From Rotaria socialis (Eukaryota): a stretch of 55,516 bases of DNA. The notes below the pieces were generated by a model that saw only the letters and a program-made list of their open reading frames with translations, ran no database searches and had not been told where the DNA came from. The position numbers were made by a program, and so were the translations under genes. The stretch covers positions 1-55,516 of the forward strand of contig CAJNYD010000552.1 in NCBI GenBank assembly GCA_905331295.1. Direction: 5' to 3'. Numbering within the stretch: position 1 is the first letter of the stretch; each line of letters starts with the position of its first letter. Shown here in pieces: positions 7,530 to 55,516 of this stretch.

Positions 7530-8327
7530 AGAATCTCGAAGTGGTCAATCAGAACGTTCAATGCCATTAAATTTACATCTTTGAACTTGCCTTTCAATAT
7601 TAGGATCATCACGAAAGAATCTATTTGGTATGCATTGCCCATTCGCACATCTATATTCATCATTTTCACAGTCGTTGATTTCAAGTTGCCAACAATTCTC
7701 CTCGTCACGTCAGCCATCAATACAATCAACTTTTCCGTCACAAATTTCACTCCAACCCAGGCATACCATAGTGGTACCAGGATTACAGTGAAGATGAATA
7801 TAACATGTCAATGTTTTCAATTCAGATTTTTGCATAAAAGAATGCTCGACGATTTCATTCAATGATAAATGATAAGATTCGTAGTCATTGAAGCTATATT
7901 GACACATCAGACCGAATTTTGACTCTGTACAATTGTAAAAGAGATGTGTAGCCATTGGTGTGATGTTTGAGATTGTAATATGTTGAATGTAGTATTCTTA
8001 ACGTTCAATCACATCCATCGATGCCGACCAAGTGTAAAGTTCCAAACTAGTTATGCCTTGCTGATAGAACATTTCAAAAGTAAAGATATGATCACGATTA
8101 TTTTTCTGTATATTCAAATTCGATAGCCATTCACTCAAACAATAGAACATAATCTGACGAGTATCATTTTTATTCTTAAGAGGAATATTAACGTATAAGC
8201 AATTGTGTTGTAATGGATGGTTACCATCGGCTTCATCAATCGAATCTGTTAGGTGAAGATTGATTTGAGGTAACTTGGTCACTGTATGTAAGATCATGAA
8301 ATTTGATAATATGCTGATCGACAACAT
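7530..8327 (-). pseudogene. Truncated pseudogene of a secreted/receptor protein with EGF-like and LDL-receptor class A repeats
   Basis: A single frame with in-frame stops: signal-like N-terminus, ...ELYTWSASMDVIER*...FYNCTESKFGLMCQY...CLGWSEICDGKVDCIDG*RDEENCWQLEINDCENDEYRCANGQCIP (LDLa consensus). The sequence then decays. Confidence 0.8.
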
Positions 8328-9713
8328 TGCCAATCTTTCGAATCGATACCAAGGAGTACAATCGCTTAATGCAAAGGCTTCATACTACTGCTACGATGCG
8401 TTTCTCTTCTATATAAATCTTTATATTTATTCAACATTTAACTATCTGAAAAAGGCTTTTCTTCTGTTAACAGACAGAATCGTTATTAAGCAAACTTGTT
8501 TTTTTTTACATCGCCTATATTAGGTTCATATAAATGCATCTAAAACGAGGCGTATAGTAAAGCAGCTCGCATACGACACTCGTCAGAAAATAAATATGGA
8601 ATACTTCACAGCTCTCTTCAACAGAATCGCATCATTCATTATAAAAATTCAGGTGCGAATGTCTTCTGTATTTGTTTTTCTCGTAAAGCCTGCGCACGCG
8701 TTCTATAGGAAGACATCAATCTTTAATTGATGTTATACTTGCTAATTGAAGCATTGAGAAAAGAGACGCAGATATCATAATACACGTATAACAAACATCA
8801 TTCATTTCATTTCTTTTCTCAATGATTAGATTACCATAAGCAAGAATAGATGTTGAACCATAAAAACTATTCACAGTAATTGTGCAAAGAAAAAGTTTAT
8901 CTCTTTCGAGAATGAACCGTCACTTCAGTGAAATTAACAAAATTTTAAGATAGATCAATATCTGTTGTTAATAGATCGAGGTTTGATGAACGCGAATTGC
9001 CACGTCATGTTCTCTAGATTGAAAAGATAGAGTCTAAAAATGTGAATTTATCGGAATCGGTCTGTGTGTAACATACATATCACGTGATTAACATGATACA
9101 AATGACACGCAGTTAAACTGTGGTACAAAGTACTACGTTCCGAGATATGGCGTAAAAGACGAGAATGATAGATGCAGAACGGCTTTGCTGCAATTCAAAG
9201 TCTTTTTGTAGAACGGTTATCTAAAAGCTTTTGTTATTCTTTTAATTTTATCATGGTTTTACTTTCTACCACTTTATTTATATCTAACTCACCACAGTTG
9301 TGTGCTCATTCAGTCTAGGACCAAGTGAATCGATTCTCGATGAGCATTACTTGTAGTTAACTGATATGAAATCCGATCGGAAAATACTCAATTAATATGA
9401 TATTTGTTTGAAAGCAATTTTTATTTTGTCAAACATTTTTATAGCGTATATTTTAGTATCATTTTAACTGATTTTATTCGTAAGTAATGTTTAGTGTTAT
9501 TTCTTTTTTGATAATCAGTATACGTGTATAATATAACTATGCATATATATATATATTTATGTTATTTTAATCAGTTGCTTTTCAGGTTTCAACGATATCT
9601 TCGTCTAAAAACATCCATATGCTTGTTACTAATAATCCGCGAATCACGATAATATTTTCAGATAATTTGATGGCGTAATGTTCTGTCATTCACTATTACA
9701 ATATCAGGAATTA

Positions 9714-12704: not shown

Positions 12705-13668
12705 GTTTGCGCTTCTCTAATAAAGACAATCGAAAGTTTTTATTTTTATTCTGACTCTAAAGAATAAAGAAATATTTATATTTTACTACACAATTGTTTT
12801 TATTCTAAAATCGATGTAGTCCTTATCGAATTTACTCATTCATTTGACAAGTAATACTTTTTTTCCGCACGACCTTTTACTTTTGTTGTTTTATTACTCT
12901 ATTCTATCGGAAAACAGATATGCAAAGTTTATTACTCGTTATTATTTTTAATTTAATTGAAACTAATACATTGTTTAGTGACATATCGCTATTTTATAAT
13001 GAAATCTAGACAAACCACATAAGACTTATTTTCGTGATCATTATAGTTTTCAATTTCACCTCGTAATCGTTTTTCGGATAGTGATCCGACGGTTTATCCA
13101 GTTGATTTAATACAAGAAAATCCTTTGAAAAATCTTACGGTGTACTCTGATAATACTTTCAAAAGAGATCTCTGAACGAAAAACACTTGATAATGGCCAT
13201 CCTACAACGAATTCAAATTCGTTCAACTGTTATTTTATCAAGTTGTTTAGTAACAAAATCGTAATTGCTGTTCTTTGTTTTCTTGCTTTTGCTTCTGTTG
13301 CTATGAATCATTTTATTCTTCGTTCTATCATATTTGGCTACACGAGAAAGTCAAAACAAGAACAGAAAATAGCCATAAACATGTTATTGCGCAATACATT
13401 ACACATGTGTGGTTATGATGTGCAAATATCTGACTTGTGCAATAACATCATAAATAACAGTCATTTCGAAATTTTGCAAGCAAACAATTTTATATATTAA
13501 GCATAAGCATAGAGTCAATTCTATGTAATATTAAGCATACTATTTTTTCTACTGTCAGATACAGTTTTATTATTGTTCATCGGTAAATAATCAGATTTTT
13601 TGATTTTTATCTTGAACTACTAGAAGTTATTCTTTCGATTTTATTCTTAGTAATACAAAAGTGTCATT

Positions 13669-16600
13669 ATGGCTGAAAATGATATATCTATAAAACGTGG
13701 TGGTGGTTTTATGGGCGTATTTGGTCCTCGTATTGATAGTATCGCTCGGGAAGTCGCTACTGCTGCTGGTGTTACTATTGTACCATCATCACCATATCAC
13801 ATAACTCTATTAACTAAGGATGAACTACGTCAATTATCAACAGATTCATCCAATAAAATTGATCGTTTAAATGAAAATGCTGCAACAATCGACACAAGAA
13901 ATATATTATCTCTTGGTGTTGGTGGTCATCCAAACGGTGTATGCTGGGTTGTAATCATTTGGAATGCAGGAAATATTTTTCGAAAAAAATATGGTTTGCC
14001 ATGTAAGCAATTTCATATAACATTGAGTGATCATGATGATCATACACCTGATAAAAGTCTTCATTCATTACATACGACATTATCGATTGATACTCTTGAT
14101 TTAAATACTCTTGATCATCTTGTTTTATACTCTAATCTATCTGATCAACATGATCAAGCGTTTATCTATGCACGTGAAATGTGCATCCGGTTTCCTGATT
14201 CGGAAAAAAGTTGGCTACGTTTAGCTGATATTACACGACGAAATGAACAATGTAAATTAGCCATGTTAGCTTATGCACGAACTATGCATCATATTGATGA
14301 ACAAGAAAATGAAAAAATTCACGACTATTGTTATAAAAAGATTTTAAATTGTGCATCGATGTATACGGAATGGGAATGTCTTTTTGGTGAAAATGAATTA
14401 GATCAAATTCCGGAAGAATTAAAAATGAGTTTGTTGACACCATGGACACAAACAATGAGACAGCGATTTGTCAATATCTATTCCGATGAACAACCACAAT
14501 ATCAACAACTCTCACGTGAACATCTTTTTGTACCGTTTATTGATCCACGCCAAAGAAATGGAAATTTAGGTAATTAGATATTTTTGTTCGTTTGAAATGA
14601 AAATGACTTATATCAATAGAAGAATAATAGAATATCATAAGAGAATGAATGATATATTTACGGTTTGGACAACATATAATAGAGAAAGTTACAATTTTAT
14701 AGCGACATCTTTGAGTTAGTCTATTCGATATGAGAAATAAAATCTAATTCTTTGAAAATGTTTAGAACTTTCAATTCTATAAATACCTATACGATGCCCA
14801 TAGTGTTTACTTCAGAGCGAATAATCTGTTGAAAGATTTTTCTCTAAAAGATCATACTAGTTCTAATGTCTATAACTATTGTACTGAAAAATTTTTCTAA
14901 TATAACTAAGTCTTGGACAGATATAACAATAGATTTAAACTATTTCAAAGCATATTAGAATCATTCAGCTAAGCAAAAAGATGTTTATTTTTCTTATTTA
15001 GAAATGTTTTCGTTACCACGATTCTTTCGTTGGATTGTTCCATTTTTTCTATCAGTCATGTCTACTCCTCGACATGAACGTGACATCGATGCTCTTGCGT
15101 CTGCTCATATTGGTATTCGACATATTATTACATTAACCGAAGAGACGCCGTTACCTGAAGAATGGTTTTTTAATAAAACAATTTCACACACACATCTTCC
15201 TGTCGAAAATTATCAACCCCCAACAATTGAACAAGTTGATATATTCTTTAGATTAGTTAATGATCCAACGAAAACACCTTTATTGGTTCATTGCGGCGGT
15301 GGAAAAGGTCGAGCAGGTACCATGATTGCTTGCTATTTAGCTATTTACGGTTTTCAAGCACCATCGGCTCAAGAATGGAGACAACCGTTTATGTCAGCTG
15401 CTGAAGCTGTAGAGAAACTACGACAATTAAGACCTGGCAGTATTGAAACAGACCAACAAGAACGATTCGTTCATACGTATGTTAGTGCTGTATGGAAACG
15501 ACAAGCTGCACTGCCACCATTACCAGATGAACCAGACGGACTTCCACTTGAAATCGAAGGACAATTAGATGGAAATATTGATTTAATAATGCTTTGCGGT
15601 GTACCTGGCTCAGGAAAATCTCATGTAGCTAGAATGATATTAACGCGAGATGAACAGTGGACAATTATTTCTCAAGATGAAACAGGTTCACGTGATACAT
15701 GTGAACGTGAATTAGGTCGACCAGGAAAATATTCTAAAGTCATTCTGGATCGTTGTAATCCAGATCGAGCAGATCGAAAAGAATGGCTTGGAATTGCACA
15801 GTGGGCAAAAAAACCCATTTGTGTTTATTTTGATTATAACCCCGAATTATGTGTATCACGTGCACAACAACGTACCGACCATCCAACACTTACGCCAGGT
15901 CAACGTGTAAGAACAGCGGTACAAAGTATGCATCGACAAATGGAAAGACCAAAACTTAATGAAGGATTTGTTGCCATATGTATTGTACGATCATTTTATG
16001 CAGCCGATGATCTAATCAGACGGTTAGCACCAATCAGAATTCTAAAATTTCTACGGACAGGTCACCTTGTGAATTTAGGTGCTGCAACCGCAGATGATTT
16101 TTTAGTATCATTCAATCAATCAAATCATACACCACATGTTATTATTACGGAAAAAGTGGATGGTGCTAATATGGGTTTTTCATTGTCAGCTGATAGAGAA
16201 TTACTTGTACAAAATCGTTCCCATTATATTACATCAACAGCACACGCACAATTTCGCCCTCTTTATAATTGGATTGAAACACATCGTGAAGGTCTTTATC
16301 ATGTTCTCGATCGTGATAATTCATTTCCCGAACGATATATTCTCTACGGTGAATGGCTTGTAGCAACACATTCAATATCTTATACAAGATTACCCGATCG
16401 ATTTCTTGCATTCGATTTATATGATCGTCAAACACAAACATGGGCCGATCGTGATACACTCGAACGATTACTTGCAGAAACGAAGATATCCTTAGTACAT
16501 ATTATGTATCGAGGACCAAGACCAACTGATGCTGTTTTAAAGGAAATGGTTCAACGTCCATCGCAATTCTACGATGGTCCAGTCGAAGGTATCTATGTTA

Positions 16601-16737
16601 AAGAAGAACAAAACGGACAAGTTATTAATCGTGGAAAGGTCGTACGAAGCGACTTTACAGCTGGAATTACTGACCATTGGGATAAAGCACCGATGCGTAA
16701 GAACGGATTTTTGATTGGTGGTGATGATATCGAATGA
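13669..16737 (+). CDS. ~878-aa multidomain RNA repair protein (2H phosphoesterase, TPR-like, Cys-dependent phosphatase, P-loop polynucleotide kinase-like, ATP-dependent RNA ligase); exons 13669-14569 and 15002-16737
   Basis: Motifs: YHITL and FHITL (2H); HCGGGKGR (CX5R); GVPGSGKS plus ISQD and ILDRCN (kinase); EKVDGAN, QNRS, YGEW, FLAFDLYD, EGIYVK and RGKVVR (nucleotidyltransferase motifs I-V). The phase-1 GT-AG intron 14570-15001 joins the two ORFs in frame. Confidence 0.93.
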
Positions 16738-17105
16738 TCTTTTTCATTTTCATTTTGTTTTACAATAAAATTCGCTCATATTCAAAACTGTCGAGAGACA
16801 ACAAAGGCATGTTTTACTGAACAGCGGAAACAATCTTCGTAGTAAATATAAACGAAAAAAAGAATTTTGAAAATTGTTTATACTGATTTGAATCCCTGAG
16901 CCATCAGTCTATTTTATCGATATAAATTAACGACCATTCATTATTTATTATTCGACCAATACTCTCATGTGAGATCTCATAATATCCACAACAAAATCAC
17001 ACTGATATACAATCATATACATAGACTAAATCAATACTCAAATACAAATCAATCTTATAAGCATATAGAAAAATAACTACAAGCTATTGTTGTTGTTGTT
17101 GTTTT

Positions 17106-18656
17106 TCAATCTATATTTGGTAAATGCTGTACAATGAATGAGCTAACATCCTTCATTTCCTAAAATATATTCTAGCCTAATTTAGAAGATTCAGTTGATA
17201 AATATTTCTTACTCGACCACATGATGAATGTCCCATATCACTATATTCTTTAAATGTATAATGTTTAAAGCCCATTGCTTTAATTCTTTGTTCAGTCATG
17301 CGAGCCCATCTCAATTGAACCAATGGGTCTTGATCGCCTACGTATTATGAAAGAAGAAAAACCTATGAATATTTATCCTTCGCTTGGGATTTACCATGAC
17401 ATTGAATAATTGGTAAATCAGCTTTGATATCACCTGATACAAGTGCCTAATAGTGAATATATATTTTAATATATATTTCATTAAATAAAAAAATACTAAC
17501 TTGAGGAAATGTTGATGATAGAGGAAGCCATGTTGATAAAGCTATAATGCCTCCAAGTGTGTGAGGAGATGTCAGCGCTATAAAAATAAAAGGAACAAAT
17601 AGGACCAAAGAAAATATAGCATAACTATAAAAATTTTACCGGTGTAAAGAGCAACAGCACCACCCCTAATTAAAAAAGTTACATATATAGAAAAAAATAA
17701 TGAAATTAAAACTTACATAGAAAAACCACCGATCATCTGGAATCGAATATAAAAACAAAAAAATAATGAATGAAATTTCTATGAAATTTTCATGCTTACA
17801 ATTCGTTCCGGTAGAATTCCATTTTTAATTTCTTCTTCAATAAGATTGCTTACTTAAAAATAAAATACATATATATATATAGTATTTAGAAATATGATAA
17901 TCAAGATAAAGAGAAAACGACTAACAAAACATGCACGACTTTTCAATGCCATCTTGATCTTCTTTAACGCTTGGATCAAGTCCATAGATATCGAACCCTA
18001 TTGAAATTATTCTATTATATTGAAAATCTTCAGTTTAGGAACTTACAAGTTGTCATCGACATTCCAAGATTTAAAGTTACTTTTTGTGTCGGACTATATA
18101 TAAAAATAAAACATTTATGAAAAAAAATCTATTTTTGTAATTCGTACAGCATAAAAATCTAAAATACGATCGAACTGTTCTCAATAATCTCAATGATAGT
18201 TTTTCGTTCTACTTCTACAATTTTCGTAGCTCTTGTTTTACAAAACAAAAGAAAGTTTAAATGAATAGATTTATCTTACGCTGTCGGGAAAATAAATTTT
18301 GCGTATGGCACAGATTTTGCAATACGATACATATTAAATACATCATGCCAACTCCCGCTAAACAATGATAAAAAGAAAGCAGGTGTGATGTTAAACATAT
18401 AAAATAAATGAAAACTCGCTTTCGCACCCCACATCACCAAGGCCATGTAAGAAAATAATCTAATTAGAAGAAAAATTATAATATTTTCTAGCATAACAAT
18501 TTAACTACTTACAGTAGCTGTATGCTTTACAGTTGAAGAAACAACTAAGGAATTAGTCATTCTCTTTGGGACACTACGTTCATCCTCTGATTGTGATGTT
18601 TCTGATGATTTCAAACAGATATTTAAAGGCCATAACGTCGAACATGAATTTCCCAT
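17106..18656 (-). CDS. Acyl-protein thioesterase / lysophospholipase (APT1/LYPLA-like), copy A, multi-exon, with an N-terminal extension
   Basis: Exons encode KHTAT-IIFLHGLGDVG, AKFIFPTA, FDIYGL, IEEEIKNGI, IGGFSMGGAVAL (nucleophile), GGIIALSTWLPL, CHGDQDPLV (Asp) and MGHSSC (His), ending HLPNID*. Confidence 0.9.
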
Positions 18657-19841
18657 TCAAAATAAGGCAACAACTAAAAACATACGAATCTGTTTGAAAA
18701 AAATGTAGTTTTATATTAGTTAAAAAAAAACAAGAAAAAAATTATTAGAAAAAAAAAAAGTCAACACAAAAGTCCATGATCAATTTATAACTAATCGCTG
18801 CTTTTGGGTAGATGTTGTTCGAGAAAAGCAGCTATATCTTTCATTTCCTACAAAGAAAAAAATATATGAATTAGTGTAATAGCAGAAAAATATAGCGTCT
18901 AGACTCGCTTCATGGCCACATTGTGACTATATCGAGGCATAGTGTTTCTTTTCTTCCTACGAACAATTCTCACAGGATTTTTATGCTTTACCCGTTGGCT
19001 GTTCGTGTCAATTTGCTTAACGTATAAAACACTGTTAGTTTCTTTTAGCATACACAATTGTTTTTAATTACATGCGTAGAGTTAAAAGAATTACTGATAT
19101 ATTTCAAATGGTACAAATTAAAAATAGACCGCTCTCATCAAAAGACTAATAATTATTGCTTTTACGAATGTAATACGTCACGACAATACAGTTTCGCATG
19201 TCGGTTTTGCATAAGTAGTATGGAGTGCTTTTCTTTATCATTAAATTTTCTGTTATATCATATGAAAGATTTTCTCATTCTATCAATTAAGTCAAGAGAA
19301 TTTCAAAGTTCGACTATCGAAACAAAACATCTTTGAATTGCTCATAAGATGTCATAGACGCTCAAATCCAATTAGTAATAAGTATTGCTCTAGTTTAATT
19401 GGTTTAATCGCTGAATGTATTCATTCGAAAGTAAGTACCAAGCTAACGAGACTCGTGTTTAAAGAATAAGACAGAACAACTTGAATATTATCTTCTTCTT
19501 TTGCGTGTTTTGCTCTAAAGACATCGAGGAAAGATAAATCTACCAGACTAATCTTTGATTAAATTTTAATCAGTCTGTACTTGCCTGTTATACTTGATGC
19601 ATCTTATCTCTACAGAGCTATTGAATACTTCTTCCGTCTAGCAAGACTGATATTTTTGTTTTAAGAATATTTTTGTTTTTGATCAGAACGAGTAACAAAT
19701 AGAATGATGTCATTCTTTGGCATGTACTCATCATACAGAAAGCAATCGATAAACAGATTATCAACTAGCTTTGACAATAGTAGTTGAAATTTTATATTTT
19801 TCTCTCTCGTAATTTTAGTTCGATTTTCGAAAATGATAAAT

Positions 19842-20049
19842 GGGTGAAAATATGGAGACCCAGTCACTTTTTGGAAAAGTTTTTTTTTTCGATCTTTTTT
19901 CAGTCGAAATTTCCGGTATGCTGTAGAAAACACTTTTGATGAAAAAAGNCATCAAAAGTGTTTTCTACAGCATACCGGAAATTTCGACTGAAAAAAGATC
20001 GAAAAAAAAAACTTTTCCAAAAAGTGACTGGGTCTCCATATTTTCACCC
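19842..20049. mobile_element. TIR pair of a Sola-like DNA transposon collapsed around an assembly N
   Basis: A ~100-bp perfect inverted repeat starting GGGTGAAAATATGGAGACCC, with AAAT on both flanks (4-bp TSD) and a single n at 19949 between the arms. Confidence 0.75.
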
Positions 20050-20191
20050 AAATACGAATGAATTCATATTTATTATTTTCGATTATGTATAAAAAATCAA
20101 TTGAACTCCATCATACATGTAATCCACTGATTAAAATTATCTCTCTATAATTTGTCATGTAATCAATCAAATTAAGATAATGCTCGATGAA

Positions 20192-21443
20192 TCAGAATTT
20201 CTATTTATGAAACAGAACAAAACGAAGAAACTTCTTACTTCTTCATAATTCGTATGTTCCATTCCATCGTACTCTTTGAAATTGTAGTCTTTAAAACCCA
20301 TTGATTTAAATTTGCCTTCACTTAATCGAGCCCGATCAATATGTATTATTTCATCTTTATTACCTATGTATGACGATAAATAATATTTTTAGATTACTCT
20401 TCCCAATATCAAATATACCATGACAATGAAGAATAGGTAAATCAAGTTTTTTATCTCCATTTACAAGTGCCTATGAAAATAAAAACAAATGATATGTTTG
20501 ACTTTTATTATTACACAATAAAGCTAACTTGAGGAAAAGTACTTGATAGAGGAAGCCATGCTGAAAGAGCTAAAATACCGCCAAATTTATGAGCAGACAC
20601 CAATGCTAGAGGAAAAGCAATGAAAAAGAATTTAAAAAAGGTAAAATAACCAATGGCATACCTGTATGAAGAGCCACAGCACCACCCCTGGTTGTCGTAA
20701 TTACAAAAAATGATGAAGGGAAAGAAAAAAGAATTAGAACTAATGCTTACATTGAAAATCCTCCAATAATCTAAAATGACACGAGAGAAAAAAAAAGAAG
20801 AAGAAAAATGAATGATATTAATCTTTCTTCACTTACTATACGTTCAGATGAAATGCCATTTTTAATTTCTTCTTCAATCATGTTATTTACTAGACACGAA
20901 AAAGCAATGAAAATAAAATCATTATCATCAATCAAAGATTTTACAAAATTCTGATGCTTTTTCGATACTTGCTTGATCTTCTGTAGCATTCGTATCAAAA
21001 CCATAAACATCAAACCCTATTGAAAAAAATTCATTTAAGCAAGCACCGCTCATATCATCACTTACAACTAGTCATAAGTTCGCCATAATTTTTCGATATT
21101 TTCATAATTGAGCTAATAATAAATCGAAATGTTACTTCACCATAAACAAACACTAACATTCATTATTTACGCTGTGGGAAAAATACATTTAACATGTGGT
21201 AAGTTTTTCGTTGTTGCAAACATAAGAAATTCGTCTTGCCAAGTTTTTCTATAAACGATCTCGAAACACTTAAATATATATAATTGAAGTGTCTGTCTCC
21301 TACCCAACGTCACCTAAGCCATGTAAGAAGATAATCTAAATGAAAATAAAAACATATAATCACAGACCGAAAAAAATCCGACGTCAAACATTTACCGTTG
21401 CTGTATGTTTTTCACTTGCAGGAATAATTGTCGGTTCCGTCAT
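20192..21443 (-). CDS. Acyl-protein thioesterase-like, copy B (same intron positions as copy A; last exon apparently truncated)
   Basis: MTEPTIIPASEKHTAT, IIFLHGLGDVG, VKCIFPTA, IGGFSMGGAVAL, GGILALSAWLPL, CHGNKDEII, GMEHTNYEE. The final exon reads KF*FIEHYLNLID. Confidence 0.8.
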
Positions 21444-51465: not shown

Positions 51466-51963
51466 TTATTTATTCATTAAGAAGTCTAATGTACAACTAT
51501 TTGATTTGTCAAATTCTACTAACGCTTTACAATGTTCTTCGTGTATGTGAATTTGTGGTCGACAATTTTTAACGAGATTAAATGCTTCAATTAATGACAT
51601 ATTCGTGGAATGCATTAAATAGACAATAGCTATAAATGGTGTTCGACTCATTCCACCACGACAGTGAATTAGTACACGATTCGAATGCTTTTCTCGACGA
51701 GCTTGATCAATAAATTGTAGTGTTAGAGGCAGATTTTTTTCACATTTATTTTTCGATACGCCATCGTTAATGTGAAATACACCATAAGTAAATTCCGATG
51801 GATAGTGACATTTACCAGCTAAATTTACTATATGAGTAATATTTAATGAATGAAGACCTTCTAAATTCTTCGACGTTTGACTACTACCAAGATAAAGAAA
51901 ATTTACAAGAAGTTCCGAATAATCGAAAGATTTTATTGGCAATTTTGATTGGTGGGATGCCAT
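51466..51963 (-). CDS. Atypical dual-specificity phosphatase (165 aa, intronless)
   Basis: Motifs FLYLGS, LNITHIVNL, FHINDG (acid loop), VLIHCRGGMSRT (CX5R) and AFNLVKNCRPQI. Confidence 0.9.
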   Translation of the reverse strand: MASHQSKLPIKSFDYSELLVNFLYLGSSQTSKNLEGLHSLNITHIVNLAGKCHYPSEFTYGVFHINDGVSKNKCEKNLPLTLQFIDQARREKHSNRVLIHCRGGMSRTPFIAIVYLMHSTNMSLIEAFNLVKNCRPQIHIHEEHCKALVEFDKSNSCTLDFLMNK

Positions 51964-53747
51964 TGAGATATAGTTTCAATAAATGAATCTCATTATGTTC
52001 TGTCACTAGCTATGACTAGAATAGTATTGCGCAATAGTTTTGCAAGAAATATAGACGTCATATGACACATCACAGGCAAATGCTTACTATTTATAAAACT
52101 TGTCTAGAATGATTTACAATAAGTAAAAGTCTCGGAATGTAATAATTAATTAATTTGGAAGAATTTTCACAAAAATTTGAACTCAGAAAAAACGTTTAGA
52201 ATTTTTCATTTTCAATGTTCAAAATACAAATTGGATATTCTGTTGTTTAGACATACGATGAAAAAATGTCAATGAATTACACTACTCATTTCGAAGAGTA
52301 AATCACGATATTAAAATTGATATATCTCAGTTATTTGTTACTTCGACAAGATAGATTCAACAATAAAGATCACACACAACATCAGGTGTACATATGCGAA
52401 TTCAATTGAAGAAAACAACTCAACTGAAATGAGAATTGGAAATAAATCAAAGTGATTTTCATTTCGTTACCCATGCCAGATCTATAGAGCATGTATCTTA
52501 GAGAACCGTAGCTACTTGTATGAATAGCTAAAGGTGGTCAAGCTGAACAACTCTTAATAAACATCTCGTACATTCTCGGGGGTTCTGCAAACGGAAAAGC
52601 TTCATCTTTGTAAGAGAAATGTCAGTCTCGGTACATCCCTAGATTTAGGTATCGTTTTTCATCATGATTGATCAATACCTTGTTAATGGCATGTAGGCAA
52701 TTGTATACGTAAAAATATGATCGTCAAAACGAGAAGTGAATATGATCCTGCGTCGATGATTACTTGAAATTCTGTCTTGATGAGAAAGTTGTTGAAGTAA
52801 ACATTCTCTATTGACTATCCTTTGCATCAATTTCAGTTTGTGGTGGACATTACATTTTATTTTCAGGTCTCGTGTTCTTTCAATACAAATGTTTGCATCA
52901 ATCAAATCATTGCTTTCCACATGAATTCAATGCATGATATTTAAACATGTGTACTTAAGATAACTTTTCGTTGAAGAAAAATACTCCTCGTGTAAGTGTG
53001 AAGAAACAACAACCTGTCTGAAACTTCAGATTGCATATAGAAAACTTGTTTGATCAGTAACTGATCTGTATGTTGCAGTTAAAAATTTATATTGTTTAAA
53101 TTTTCTCAAGGATACGAAAAGTAAATTTTCTGAAAGAAAGTTGAGACATGTATATTTCATACTCTTTGGTTTCACCAGCTAATGGTAAATATTTTATTGC
53201 AAAAATCTAGAATCAACAAACACGAGTCGCAGAGTTCAATGTTTTTCTAGAACCGATTTTTTATTCTATTACACTGGTCTTTTTTTCTCAAGAGGACTCA
53301 TCCATAATTCTGTACTATGGTAGCGTTTCCTACATTAAAAATATTAACATCATACTCTTTTCTCAATCACAAACAACTATACAATAATCCTTGTTCATAA
53401 ACATTTTACCCAAGCATTCAATATCATGGTTTCAATCGATTTCCCAAACCTGAATAATTCAAAATTAAACGACTTTAAAGGAATTTAGTAGTATAGTTTT
53501 CGCCCGATTGTAATTTGATCACTAGTCACATGCCTTCAAATTAAAGCAGAACGCATAAAATATGTATAAATATATTCTTTTTAAATTTCCAAGCCGACGT
53601 CTTAGTCATCATATGCTTTCGAATGTCTATTTGAATCGAATTTCATGCAAAATATCAATAAGATAAATGGTTCAAATCCGCTAGACTGATATTTATCTCA
53701 AATAAATATTTACTGATTTATTTGTGCTGCATCATTTTTTTTCTGTA

Positions 53748-54039: not shown

Positions 54040-55516
54040 CTTCAAATTGTAGATTAGAATGAAACTGTAGCTATTACTTCGAAATTGATCTAGATCTTCT
54101 TTTACAATATCTTCTAAATACTTCAGTAGTTTTTGACGGAAATCTTCGTTTTGAATTTGTTGCTTCAGCTGTGTTGGTGTGAAGTCATGATTGAGCCAAA
54201 TAAGAAGGTGCAAGTGAAGTGAACCTCTGCCTTGGCTCTCTACAGTACCACAGTACTCCTCTGATATGCTTCATAAGTGTATTTATTCTTTGATCGGCAA
54301 TGTTTGAATACGTTCCTTTTGAAATATTTACAAGGGCTGTTGCTATATCTGCAGAACTCAATGATTCTAGAAGTTGTGCAGATTGCTGAAAGTATCGTAT
54401 TAATGTCATTAAATGTGCGTGAAAGCATGCAGTACGGTGTTGTAGAATATTGAAAACAACAAATATGAATGAGCAGTGTTCTTCAAAACGAAGATTTCTA
54501 AACACAATAAGATATCTGAGATGCTCACGAAAATCTATTTGGACCGATCGAGAATCATCTTCAATTGCACCACAACCATATGGGAAAAGCGCAGGAAGGA
54601 TGCCTAATAGTATATTTGGATTAGAATATTCATTCACCGGTCTGTTGCCACGAGGAATCATGTATACAGTATCTTTTTGGATACTTCTTTCAGAAGTCAG
54701 TCCACGTGTTTGCTCTGCGGTTTGGAACTTCATTCGGTCGAATAGATGTTCAGCAACATCATCGGACGAAATATTGGTACCATTAACATCTAAAACAGCA
54801 CTGTAATACAAACCATAGTACTTAAATATATCAATATGATTTTTTTTTAAACTTTACTTCGGAATTAAAGGTACAATTGCTGTATTATTTGATTCAGATA
54901 CATTGATAAAAAATCGGGAATATAACTTGCTCTTTCATTTGCAGCAGTTTCAACGTTGTCGAAGACTTGCATTGTTGCCCACAAACATTATGGTACATCA
55001 TCGTCAGGTAATTTATCGATTATTGATGGATTAATTACTACATTTCGATAGAGTGGGTTGCTTTGTCTGAGCCATTATAATGGGTTCAGTACTTTCTTTT
55101 TTCGAACTGTCAAAAGATTTTTTAGTTCGCTTCTTTCTGGAGTGCGACAGCCGACAAAAATGATTTTTAGTGAACCACATAGACCCTCTAACTCTAATGG
55201 CAATGTAGCAGCAATGTTCACCATATCCTGTGGAAAGGCTATACAGTTGCCTTTAATAGCTGATTGAGCTGTGGCTGCTGAATGAAAAGATGAATGCAAT
55301 TTTACGATGCAACTATTGTGTCTGTATAGAGCAATGAGTCTTTGCTCAGGAATGGTTAGTCCCTGCAGTTCATTTGGCATATCTCCCATTCATATTTTGT
55401 TGGCCACTGAAAACTTCGGTATTTTTTCCTTTGTCAATGCAGACCAGCACTCCATGCAAATGTCACAATGTATAAAATAACGTTTCTTCTTATCAAGACT
55501 ACGATGTAGTCCTCGT
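54040..55516 (-). mobile_element. Decayed Helitron Rep-helicase fragment (runs off the window)
   Basis: HUH motif GTVESQGRGSLHLHLLIW (~54196-54249). Helitron-typical LFPYGCG and RFEEHCSFIFVVFNILQ blocks; upstream region ANKIWMGDMPNELQGLTIPEQRLIA...KGNCIAFPQD-like. In-frame stops, a frameshift and an internal deletion. Confidence 0.88.

Follow-up and report, generated by a model that had tools for sequence, protein, structure and literature searches.

A predicted single-chain RNA healing and sealing enzyme in bdelloid rotifers, likely gained from a non-animal eukaryote

Could an animal heal and seal the ends of broken RNA with a single polypeptide, and from where would it have obtained the gene? 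These questions are raised by a gene on the forward strand of contig CAJNYD010000552.1 of the bdelloid rotifer Rotaria socialis (GCA_905331295.1), of which positions 1 to 55,516 were analysed (the window). A first-pass annotation, made from the letters of the window alone, had read this gene as a spliced, horizontally acquired, stand-alone RNA repair system that could mend RNA broken by desiccation, radiation or ribotoxins. The reading that we favour, with a probability of roughly 0.65, is that the gene codes for a Swiss Army Knife protein predicted to heal and seal cut RNA alone, and that a bdelloid ancestor likely gained it from a non-animal eukaryote. Its domains place the protein in the Swiss Army Knife family of Pfam, the recognition of which is said to be due to Burroughs and Aravind in 2016, and its architecture is not new; the family is known but apparently uncharacterised, and it is the host that is unusual. 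Published work is cited below by PMC number.

Four predicted catalytic domains in one chain

Two long open frames are found in this region of the forward strand, at 13654-14577 and 14959-16737. Joining 13669-14569 to 15002-16737 gives 2637 nt coding for 878 amino acids (aa) with a single terminal stop. The predicted product is identical to the database protein P0001, labelled Rotaria socialis, except for Ser760 in place of Pro; this difference corresponds to a T16378C variant in RNA-type contigs, and Ser is also present in 7 of 91 non-bdelloid-type rows of the alignment described below. A hidden Markov model scan against Pfam placed 2H-SAK, PTP-SAK, the AAA_33 kinase and RNA_ligase (PF09414) in one chain and in family order, all above their 27-bit cut-offs, and every motif reported by the first-pass annotation could be located: the two HxT motifs, the CX5R motif as HCGGGKGR, the Walker A motif as GxPGSGKS, and those of the ligase. 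The five-part order that it had described is shared by 143 of the 269 proteins examined, and its count of five modules needs one correction: four are predicted to be catalytic, and the fifth, a helical linker, would be a scaffold.

Conservation was assessed in an alignment of 100 rows drawn from those 143 proteins, comprising the query, 7 bdelloid-type rows, the protein P0021 and 91 others, mostly named Agaricomycetes. Residues C398, R404, K506, D526, R587, R591, K685, E751, E829 and K846 are invariant in all 100 rows, and an AlphaFold single-chain model built on this alignment reached a predicted local distance difference test score (pLDDT) of 89 and a predicted template modelling score of 0.79. 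A search of the ESM Atlas led back to this family without adding to it. Other Swiss Army Knife proteins (PF22547, PF22784) have the same domains in the same order, with 51% identity over 868 columns to P0026 of Jaapia argillacea; the rotifer protein differs from them in its animal host, its own bdelloid clade, a lineage-specific intron and a minor splice form without the ligase. Three family proteins (P0216, P0224 and P0418) have a shuffled order with two ligase domains, 2H-ligase-ligase-phosphatase-kinase.

The N-terminal 2H domain scored 77.7 bits against a cut-off of 27, with the motifs H44-x-T46 and H116-x-T118; H44 is kept in 92 and H116 in 98 of the 100 rows. Its fold is assigned from Pfam and these motifs. 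A separate AlphaFold model of aa 1-300 (pLDDT 91) gave no Foldseek match at E 0.001, and the 2H enzymes E. coli LigT and Arabidopsis CPDase appeared weakly, at E about 0.1. The domain is a predicted cyclic phosphodiesterase. In the helical region that follows, AlphaFold placed helical hairpins at about aa 145-231, a profile match to the consensus tetratricopeptide repeat (TPR) was found at E 5e-5, and TPR proteins ranked first in Foldseek at E 0.03 or worse. The TPR-like linker of the first-pass annotation is thus borne out by the hairpins and the ranking, but held weakly at these E values; we infer that it acts as a scaffold or binds substrate or a partner.

The CX5R phosphatase matched PF22784 at 209 bits over the whole profile. 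Foldseek matched it to DUSP23, with a target template modelling (TM) score of 0.85 to 2img and 4erc, and the HCx5R loop and dual-specificity phosphatase fold are present. Both features, and a second acid Glu, are shared with the DUSP23/VHZ-like atypical dual-specificity phosphatases, which have an IPD-type loop Asp whereas the rotifer domain has Asn370 (codon 15208-15210), aligned to the general-acid Asp of 25xa. This residue, Asn in 98 of the 100 rows, qualifies the earlier statement that the gene has no disabling mutations, which holds for the catalytic motifs. The invariant Glu449 (codon 15445-15447) lies in the loop matching DUSP23 Glu134 and Tk-PTP Glu132, and since these two act as a second acid/base (PMC5965843; PMC4409338), Glu449 is the likely substitute in the general-acid role, the equivalence being drawn by analogy. 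The family-wide Asn370 together with the invariant Glu449 possibly marks a phosphatase whose acid/base is Glu only. We predict, again by analogy, an RNA 2'/3'-phosphatase. A stand-alone dual-specificity phosphatase (PF00782) is also present in the window at 51466-51975 on the reverse strand, and by sequence rank it is unrelated to the fused domain.

The kinase matched PF13671 at 50.8 bits. Among solved structures it is closest to 9D8A and 9DRZ, the RNA 5'-OH kinases of Mucorales that were shown to function in tRNA splicing (E 2e-18, and 5e-28 by profile), and TIGR04075 and the Clostridium Pnkp kinase matched weakly. In our own residue mapping, D526, R587 and R591 align with Asp36, Arg99 and Arg103 of the Mucorales kinase RazKIN; the alignment to 9D8A ends before the guanine-binding Ser146 of that structure. 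The Mucorales enzyme acts on RNA and DNA and prefers GTP (PMC11571804). By analogy, the domain is a predicted RNA 5'-OH kinase.

The C-terminal domain matched PF09414 over aa 679-847 at 120 bits and scored only with this and the phage RNA ligase families; PF09511, the Rnl1-like ligase of Trl1, and HAD gave no match at E 0.001 in the Pfam scan of the chain. Foldseek matched it to Naegleria Rnl5 (NgrRnl; about 234 columns aligned of 340 aa, target TM 0.44), to Trypanosoma REL1 (1xdn) and to archaeal Rnl3. The nucleotidyltransferase core is shared with the Rnl5 ligases (NgrRnl, Deinococcus DraRnl), likewise without a C-terminal appendage, and with the Rnl2 ligases (T4 Rnl2, Trypanosoma REL1), but the Rnl2 C-domain is absent, and the kinase stands directly upstream of the core, so that healing domains take the place of the signature N-domain of Rnl5. 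The chain ends 32 aa past K846 with no C-terminal domain, and the tail past the motif V Lys measures 7-40 aa (median 30) in all 100 rows. A ligase lacking both accessory domains implies that another part of the chain must substitute for them. We infer by analogy a bare Rnl2/Rnl5-type core that would perform scarless 3'-OH/5'-P sealing. This is the simplest reading because the chain contains a phosphatase and its ligase is not of the 2'-phosphate-dependent Trl1 type; a phosphatase beside a 2H domain would be sensible only if the ligase needs an unblocked 3'-OH.

Repair would then proceed in four steps. The 2H domain would open the 2',3'-cyclic phosphate, and the CX5R domain would strip off the phosphate left at the 2' or 3' position by way of a phospho-enzyme at Cys398, with Glu449 as the probable acid/base. 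The kinase would phosphorylate the 5'-OH with Asp526 as base and, finally, the ligase would adenylylate Lys685 and join 3'-OH to 5'-P in a plain 3'-5' bond. Because no 2'-phosphate scar would be left, no Tpt1 step would be needed.

The first-pass annotation had compared this strategy with those of T4 Pnkp/Rnl and of Trl1, and in its particulars the likeness did not hold, since the domain order differs, the phosphatase is of the CX5R and not the HAD type, and the ligase core is of the Rnl2/Rnl5 type. Trl1 (in fungi and plants, with split versions in Mucorales and Branchiostoma) has in common a chain predicted to heal and seal 2',3'-cyclic-phosphate/5'-OH ends, a 2H domain and a kinase with P-loop, catalytic Asp and lid arginines, the rotifer kinase being homologous to the Mucorales tRNA-splicing enzyme. 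In contrast, Trl1 runs ligase-kinase-2H whereas this chain runs 2H-phosphatase-kinase-ligase with the CX5R phosphatase as an extra, and the Trl1 ligase is a 2'-phosphate-dependent PF09511 enzyme with its own C-terminal domain, the core here being of the PF09414 type and lacking such a domain. T4 Pnkp with Rnl1/Rnl2, and bacterial Pnkp, follow the scheme predicted here, in which the phosphate is removed completely, the 5' end is phosphorylated and the 3'-OH is sealed to the 5'-P, but with a HAD (DxDxT) phosphatase or a metallophosphoesterase in place of 2H and CX5R; here everything is in a single chain and there is no Hen1. Among animals, healing and sealing are divided between separate enzymes in Branchiostoma (PMC10680797), and humans have a 5'-3' RNA ligase in C12orf29 (PMC9931718, PMC11494293). 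Animals are consequently not devoid of ATP-dependent RNA ligation, and the single chain is the unusual part.

Several observations weigh against this reading of the chemistry. The 2H fold is without a significant structural match, and the domain is the least conserved catalytic part, some relatives having lost a His or a Thr. The phosphatases of solved structure that come nearest, DUSP23 and archaeal PTPs, act on proteins, and among these matches none is known to act on RNA; moreover, an Asp-to-Asn change in Tk-PTP lowered activity about tenfold (PMC5965843). Removal of the Rnl2 C-domain or the Rnl5 N-domain cripples overall sealing in those enzymes (PMC4408790). Furthermore, the chemistry is all by analogy because no assay of any family member was found in a literature search made mostly without subscription papers.

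Two other readings of the chain follow from these points. The modules might form no single pathway, the CX5R domain acting on protein or small-molecule phosphates, the 2H domain on free cyclic nucleotides, and only the kinase and ligase on RNA. The nearest solved phosphatases are of the DUSP23 type, 2H domains also process an ADP-ribose cyclic phosphate (PMC9503650), and the HCx5R motif is missing in 6 of 59 rows of a distant set. We nevertheless consider a division of this kind improbable, as the four domains stay together, shuffled orders included, across fungi, plants, protists and viruses, and within bdelloids no domain is under stronger constraint than the phosphatase, with a nonsynonymous to synonymous substitution ratio (dN/dS) of 0.07.

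The protein might alternatively mend nicks in DNA or in RNA/DNA hybrids, as a PNKP-like healer with a nick ligase. Fungal relatives carry the public label 'ATP dependent DNA ligase', and Foldseek matched the kinase to mammalian PNKP, a DNA enzyme, as well as to the Mucorales RNA kinases, which also take DNA (PMC11571804), a likeness that itself tells against an action confined to RNA; moreover, Rnl2/Rnl5 ligases tolerate DNA on the 5'-P side (PMC4408790). The same source, on the other hand, states that the matched NgrRnl requires RNA on the 3'-OH side, and A. vaga already has 4 PNKP copies (PMC6264785). The ligase matches RNA ligase families only, and its end so soon after motif V leaves no room for an OB domain. 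The 2H domain points to cyclic-phosphate ends, and such ends are specific to RNA. Taking both sides into account, a DNA substrate seems distinctly improbable to us.

Transcripts and residence in the bdelloid genome

The single spliced frame proposed by the first-pass annotation was confirmed by run sequences covering the junction, the features being collected in Table 1. The 432-nt intron, with a GT start and a pyrimidine tract and AG at its end, is skipped in runs X1, X2, X3, X4, X6, X7 and X8, that is, in seven of eight runs, from 5 studies; the eighth, X5, does not cover the 14570-15001 junction. These sequences are assembled contigs whose RNA nature is mostly guessed, X8 alone being recorded as RNA, with a shorter side of 28 letters, and because they are assembled contigs they demonstrate splicing and not expression level. 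Public gene calls cut the gene of the window in two (P0271 and P0274, of 302 and 577 aa), but the contigs indicate a single transcript.

Table 1. Transcript and domain features of the repair gene in the window
Feature	Positions	Strand	Evidence or remark
5' untranslated region (UTR) exon	13499..13582	+	RNA-type contigs X1, X2; 13499 is the furthest contig end, not an established transcript start
5'-UTR intron, 68 nt, GT..AG	13583..13650	+	Skipped in X1, X2, X3, X7; ends checked
First coding exon part, aa 1-300 (2H domain and helical region)	13669..14569	+	
2H phosphoesterase PF22547 2H-SAK, aa 14-125; H44/H116 of two HxT motifs (predicted)	13708..14043	+	Pfam, conservation
TPR-like helical region, aa about 146-270	14104..14478	+	AlphaFold, consensus-TPR profile, Foldseek
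Phase-1 intron, 432 nt, GT..AG	14570..15001	+	Run contigs; orthologue on L001 without intron
Last coding exon, aa 301-878 and stop	15002..16737	+	
CX5R phosphatase PF22784 PTP-SAK, aa 306-457; C398, R404, N370, E449 (predicted)	15016..15471	+	Pfam, conservation, structure match
P-loop polynucleotide-type kinase, aa 494-642; K506, D526, lid R587 and R591 (predicted)	15580..16026	+	Solved-structure matches
Minor exitron, 56 nt, GT..AG	16023..16078	+	Skipped in X1, X2
ATP-dependent RNA ligase nucleotidyltransferase core PF09414; K685 (motif I), E751, F771, E829, K846 (predicted)	16039..16710	+	Pfam, conservation, Foldseek
3' UTR, approximate	16738..16805	+	X1 ends at 16788; X4 ends at 16805, the furthest contig end

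Two features are absent from the first-pass annotation, the intron in the 5' UTR and a minor splice form. Removal of the exitron at 16023-16078 shifts the frame, and by translation the protein would end at 646 aa, between kinase and ligase. The contigs that skip it have depths of 4 against 7.7 in X1 and 5.4 against 15.2 in X2; contigs of X3 and X6 restart at 16078, which hints at the same event, and X7 runs through it unspliced. In the orthologue on the metagenome contig L001 the acceptor is kept and the donor has moved by one base, so that the exitron frameshift is not conserved. The spliced transcript may yield a healing-only product of 646 aa or be a target of nonsense-mediated decay. A distant bdelloid-type record, P0121, ends at aa 651, on the same kinase/ligase border, and P0285 is a separate C-terminal piece of 188 aa from a contig of equal length; P0121 could be a second case of splicing that drops the ligase or an error of the record. 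That it is simply a ligase-less paralogue was not established, as its cluster holds a full member of 879 aa (P0286).

The gene resides in rotifers. Close relatives, at 78-85% identity over the last exon, were found in eight named bdelloid species of three genera: Rotaria (4 species), Adineta (3) and Didymodactylos. L001 carries an intronless orthologue, 75% identical, whose flanking genes agree with those of the window in kind and order: the upstream gene, tandem Abhydrolase_2 genes, Vma22/CCDC115 and a 2OG-Fe(II) oxygenase; the 432-nt intron, absent there, is lineage-specific. Against this orthologue dN/dS was 0.18 overall and 0.07-0.37 per domain (one pair, with dS near saturation). GC content at third codon positions (GC3) is 0.19, compared with 0.13-0.22 in six neighbouring coding stretches. 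An intronless relative of 884 aa, P0014, on repeated metagenome contigs of 97-139 kb, was considered as viral or bacterial and this was rejected, L001 being a syntenic bdelloid-type contig with no viral match.

A fungal-type protein in an animal assembly, with homologues covered in part (best 120 of 693 and best 120 of 475), invites the suspicion of contamination, a chimeric assembly or vertical inheritance from early animals. Against these explanations stand the distribution over eight species, the synteny with L001, the host-like GC3, the transcripts spliced in five studies and a monophyletic bdelloid group nested among non-animals. We regard them as extremely improbable; contamination is excluded for practical purposes, and a stably integrated, intron-bearing gene is supported.

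Other features surround the gene. L001 has, at 7959-9655, a cytochrome P450 gene that separates the repair gene from its upstream neighbour and for which the window shows no match. The tandem Abhydrolase_2 genes (phospholipase/carboxylesterase) are multi-exonic, two of them in the window at about 17160-21300 on the reverse strand and apparently three in L001 at about 12800-17300. Helitron-like fragments (PF14214, weak, and DUF6570) are found at 54185-55389 of the window, reverse strand.

Origin and distribution of the family

Named relatives outside bdelloids belong to Basidiomycota, chytrids, a blastoclad, some Ascomycota, a moss, two ferns and a liverwort; 'Siphonaria sp. JEL0065' we take to be a chytrid culture, not a limpet. 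A 50%-cluster search returned 516 proteins at E 1e-30. No named non-bdelloid animal was present among the two sets of best 120, among 108 of 108 rows, or among 30 clusters. In GTDB genomes, two patterns of low sensitivity gave 34 matches, none a relative. Viral contigs gave 174 relatives, of which 80 were kept; they are mostly ligase only, and the nearest full forms are distant, on long branches. Distant 2H-phosphatase-kinase-ligase fusions are found on two IMG/VR contigs, L004 (2446-4743; labelled GVMAG) and L008 (5001-7373). In the moss, fern and liverwort records (P0128, P0144, P0324 and P0361) the fusion turns up at scattered places in the tree, which suggests that seed-free plants received it more than once, or that some of these records are fungal contamination. 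To the fungi and other microbial eukaryotes from which such fusions were said to be mainly known, moss, fern and liverwort records and viruses have to be added, and the nearest named non-animal match is a cryptophyte.

Trees were built from 48 and from 30 chosen rows, the smaller omitting 18 (viral, most unnamed, and redundant). The bdelloid rows and P0021 formed one clade (100/100) inside an otherwise fungal clade (99/95), in which no sister was resolved. An approximately unbiased test rejected the fungi as a clade without bdelloids and P0021 (p 0.036); it weakens the case that the tested group was picked after the tree was seen. P0021 branches next to the bdelloid rows as a whole, as their sister, reaches 1153 bits where Jaapia has 823, and is closer than the best of the 91 others in all five domains, a position taken from a quick tree with an untrimmed Penicillium row and used only for placing P0021. 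Its GARP/FYMINK ratio of 1.50, against 0.82-1.07 in nine bdelloid-type full-length rows, points to a GC-richer genome. Another GC-rich relative, P0245, is listed with P0021 as sister to the bdelloids.

The Adineta vaga orthologue FUN_006463 (PF00102 and PF09414) is marked as a horizontal gene transfer in Table S2 of PMC12220480, with Guillardia theta as top match (E 0.0) and the Jaapia protein P0026 second (2e-228). This composition and this published top match led us to drop the idea that P0021 is a bdelloid protein; it is plausibly a protein of the Guillardia theta kind. The placement suggests a cryptophyte-rotifer link inside the fungal clade, with the reservation that the Guillardia theta connection comes from the published table row. 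A direct Agaricomycete donor was also dropped, P0021 being nearer in all five domains. The horizontal acquisition put forward by the first-pass annotation is supported by the nesting of the bdelloid clade among non-animals, no other named animal being found in the rows examined, and by the published mark on the A. vaga gene. Its acquisition is likely to be ancient, from some eukaryote outside the animals, with a cryptophyte as the nearest named match and fungi next; it may have passed from a fungus to a cryptophyte and on to bdelloids, or from an unsampled donor to both.

Possible role and significance

Foreign RNA ligases of bdelloids, PF09414 included, are induced by a fungal pathogen and not enriched in desiccation, and defence against ribotoxins has been proposed for them (PMC11258130 and preprint); that idea is thus already in print, as is the foreign status of the A. 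vaga orthologue in a supplementary table (PMC12220480). The published foreign RNA ligases and DNA ligase E (PMC11258130, PMC10809525, PMC10665377) are likewise horizontally acquired nucleic-acid repair enzymes, but the 7 focal A. ricciae RNA ligases have T4 Rnl1, trypanosome REL2 or baculovirus PNK/ligase as top matches, and the four-enzyme architecture is described for none of these enzymes. No paper describing the fusion in bdelloids was found in a search made mostly without subscription papers and without the family's founding paper, in which rotifer members may already be listed. A search of the truncated A. vaga Table S2 for RtcB gave 0 hits, a negative to which no weight is given. The gene was not seen in the passages of PMC6264785 or the supplements of PMC10665377 examined, PF09414 and DUSP23 labels had no match in the searched Nowell 2024 supplement files, and no FUN identifier matching the NCBI locus number 009105 was seen.

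A rival reading, the one stressed by the first-pass annotation, makes the same enzyme a specialist for damage from desiccation or radiation, induced under these conditions as a counterpart of the foreign DNA ligase E of bdelloids. Irradiated A. vaga over-expresses RNA repair genes along with two foreign RNA ligases, and the same paper cites, in connection with radiation resistance, a nick-sealing ligase of Deinococcus from Rnl5, the family to which the ligase core was matched in structure (PMC10809525). These induced ligases are, however, FUN_027119 and FUN_021735, and the orthologue is FUN_006463 (assuming the same series of identifiers, in which a second allele or ohnolog number is possible), which does not appear in the main text of that paper; RNA-ligase terms are not enriched in desiccation responses in the available parts of PMC11258130. 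Such a dedicated function is unlikely in our view, and the special desiccation or radiation role envisaged earlier is so far unsupported. FUN_006463 is modestly expressed in A. vaga (PMC12220480). Best fitting, we think, is constant low-level protection from breaks of the nuclease type, whether due to ribotoxins, stress RNases or spontaneous cleavage. On the other side, no stress-linked expression change could be shown for the gene, and FUN_006463 was flat in spaceflight (false discovery rate 0.54; PMC12220480).

A more far-reaching version, which we regard as a long shot, would hold that only bdelloids among animals own a single-chain scarless RNA repairase, with a CX5R RNA phosphatase whose only acid is Glu and a bare ligase, passed from a fungus to a cryptophyte alga and from there to rotifers, for which algae are food, kept in all bdelloid lineages to reseal rRNA or tRNA cut by ribotoxins, and tunable by the exitron to a healing-only form.

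The significance of the gene is tempered by the thousands of foreign genes in bdelloids and by an architecture already known. Nevertheless, the gene would supply the healing steps that the ribotoxin-defence hypothesis needs, because ligases alone cannot join cyclic-phosphate/5'-OH ends. FUN_006463 is a named gene to trace in infection, desiccation and radiation data, and the cryptophyte top match makes it a candidate for serial transfer from eukaryote to eukaryote. Compact, well-folding and nearly intronless, this gene of 878 codons offers a convenient first test of the Swiss Army Knife family, which would tell whether the CX5R domain is an RNA-end phosphatase and whether the bare ligase core seals without a 2'-phosphate. 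If the favoured reading is true, the family would add to Trl1 and RtcB a third way in which eukaryotes heal and seal RNA.

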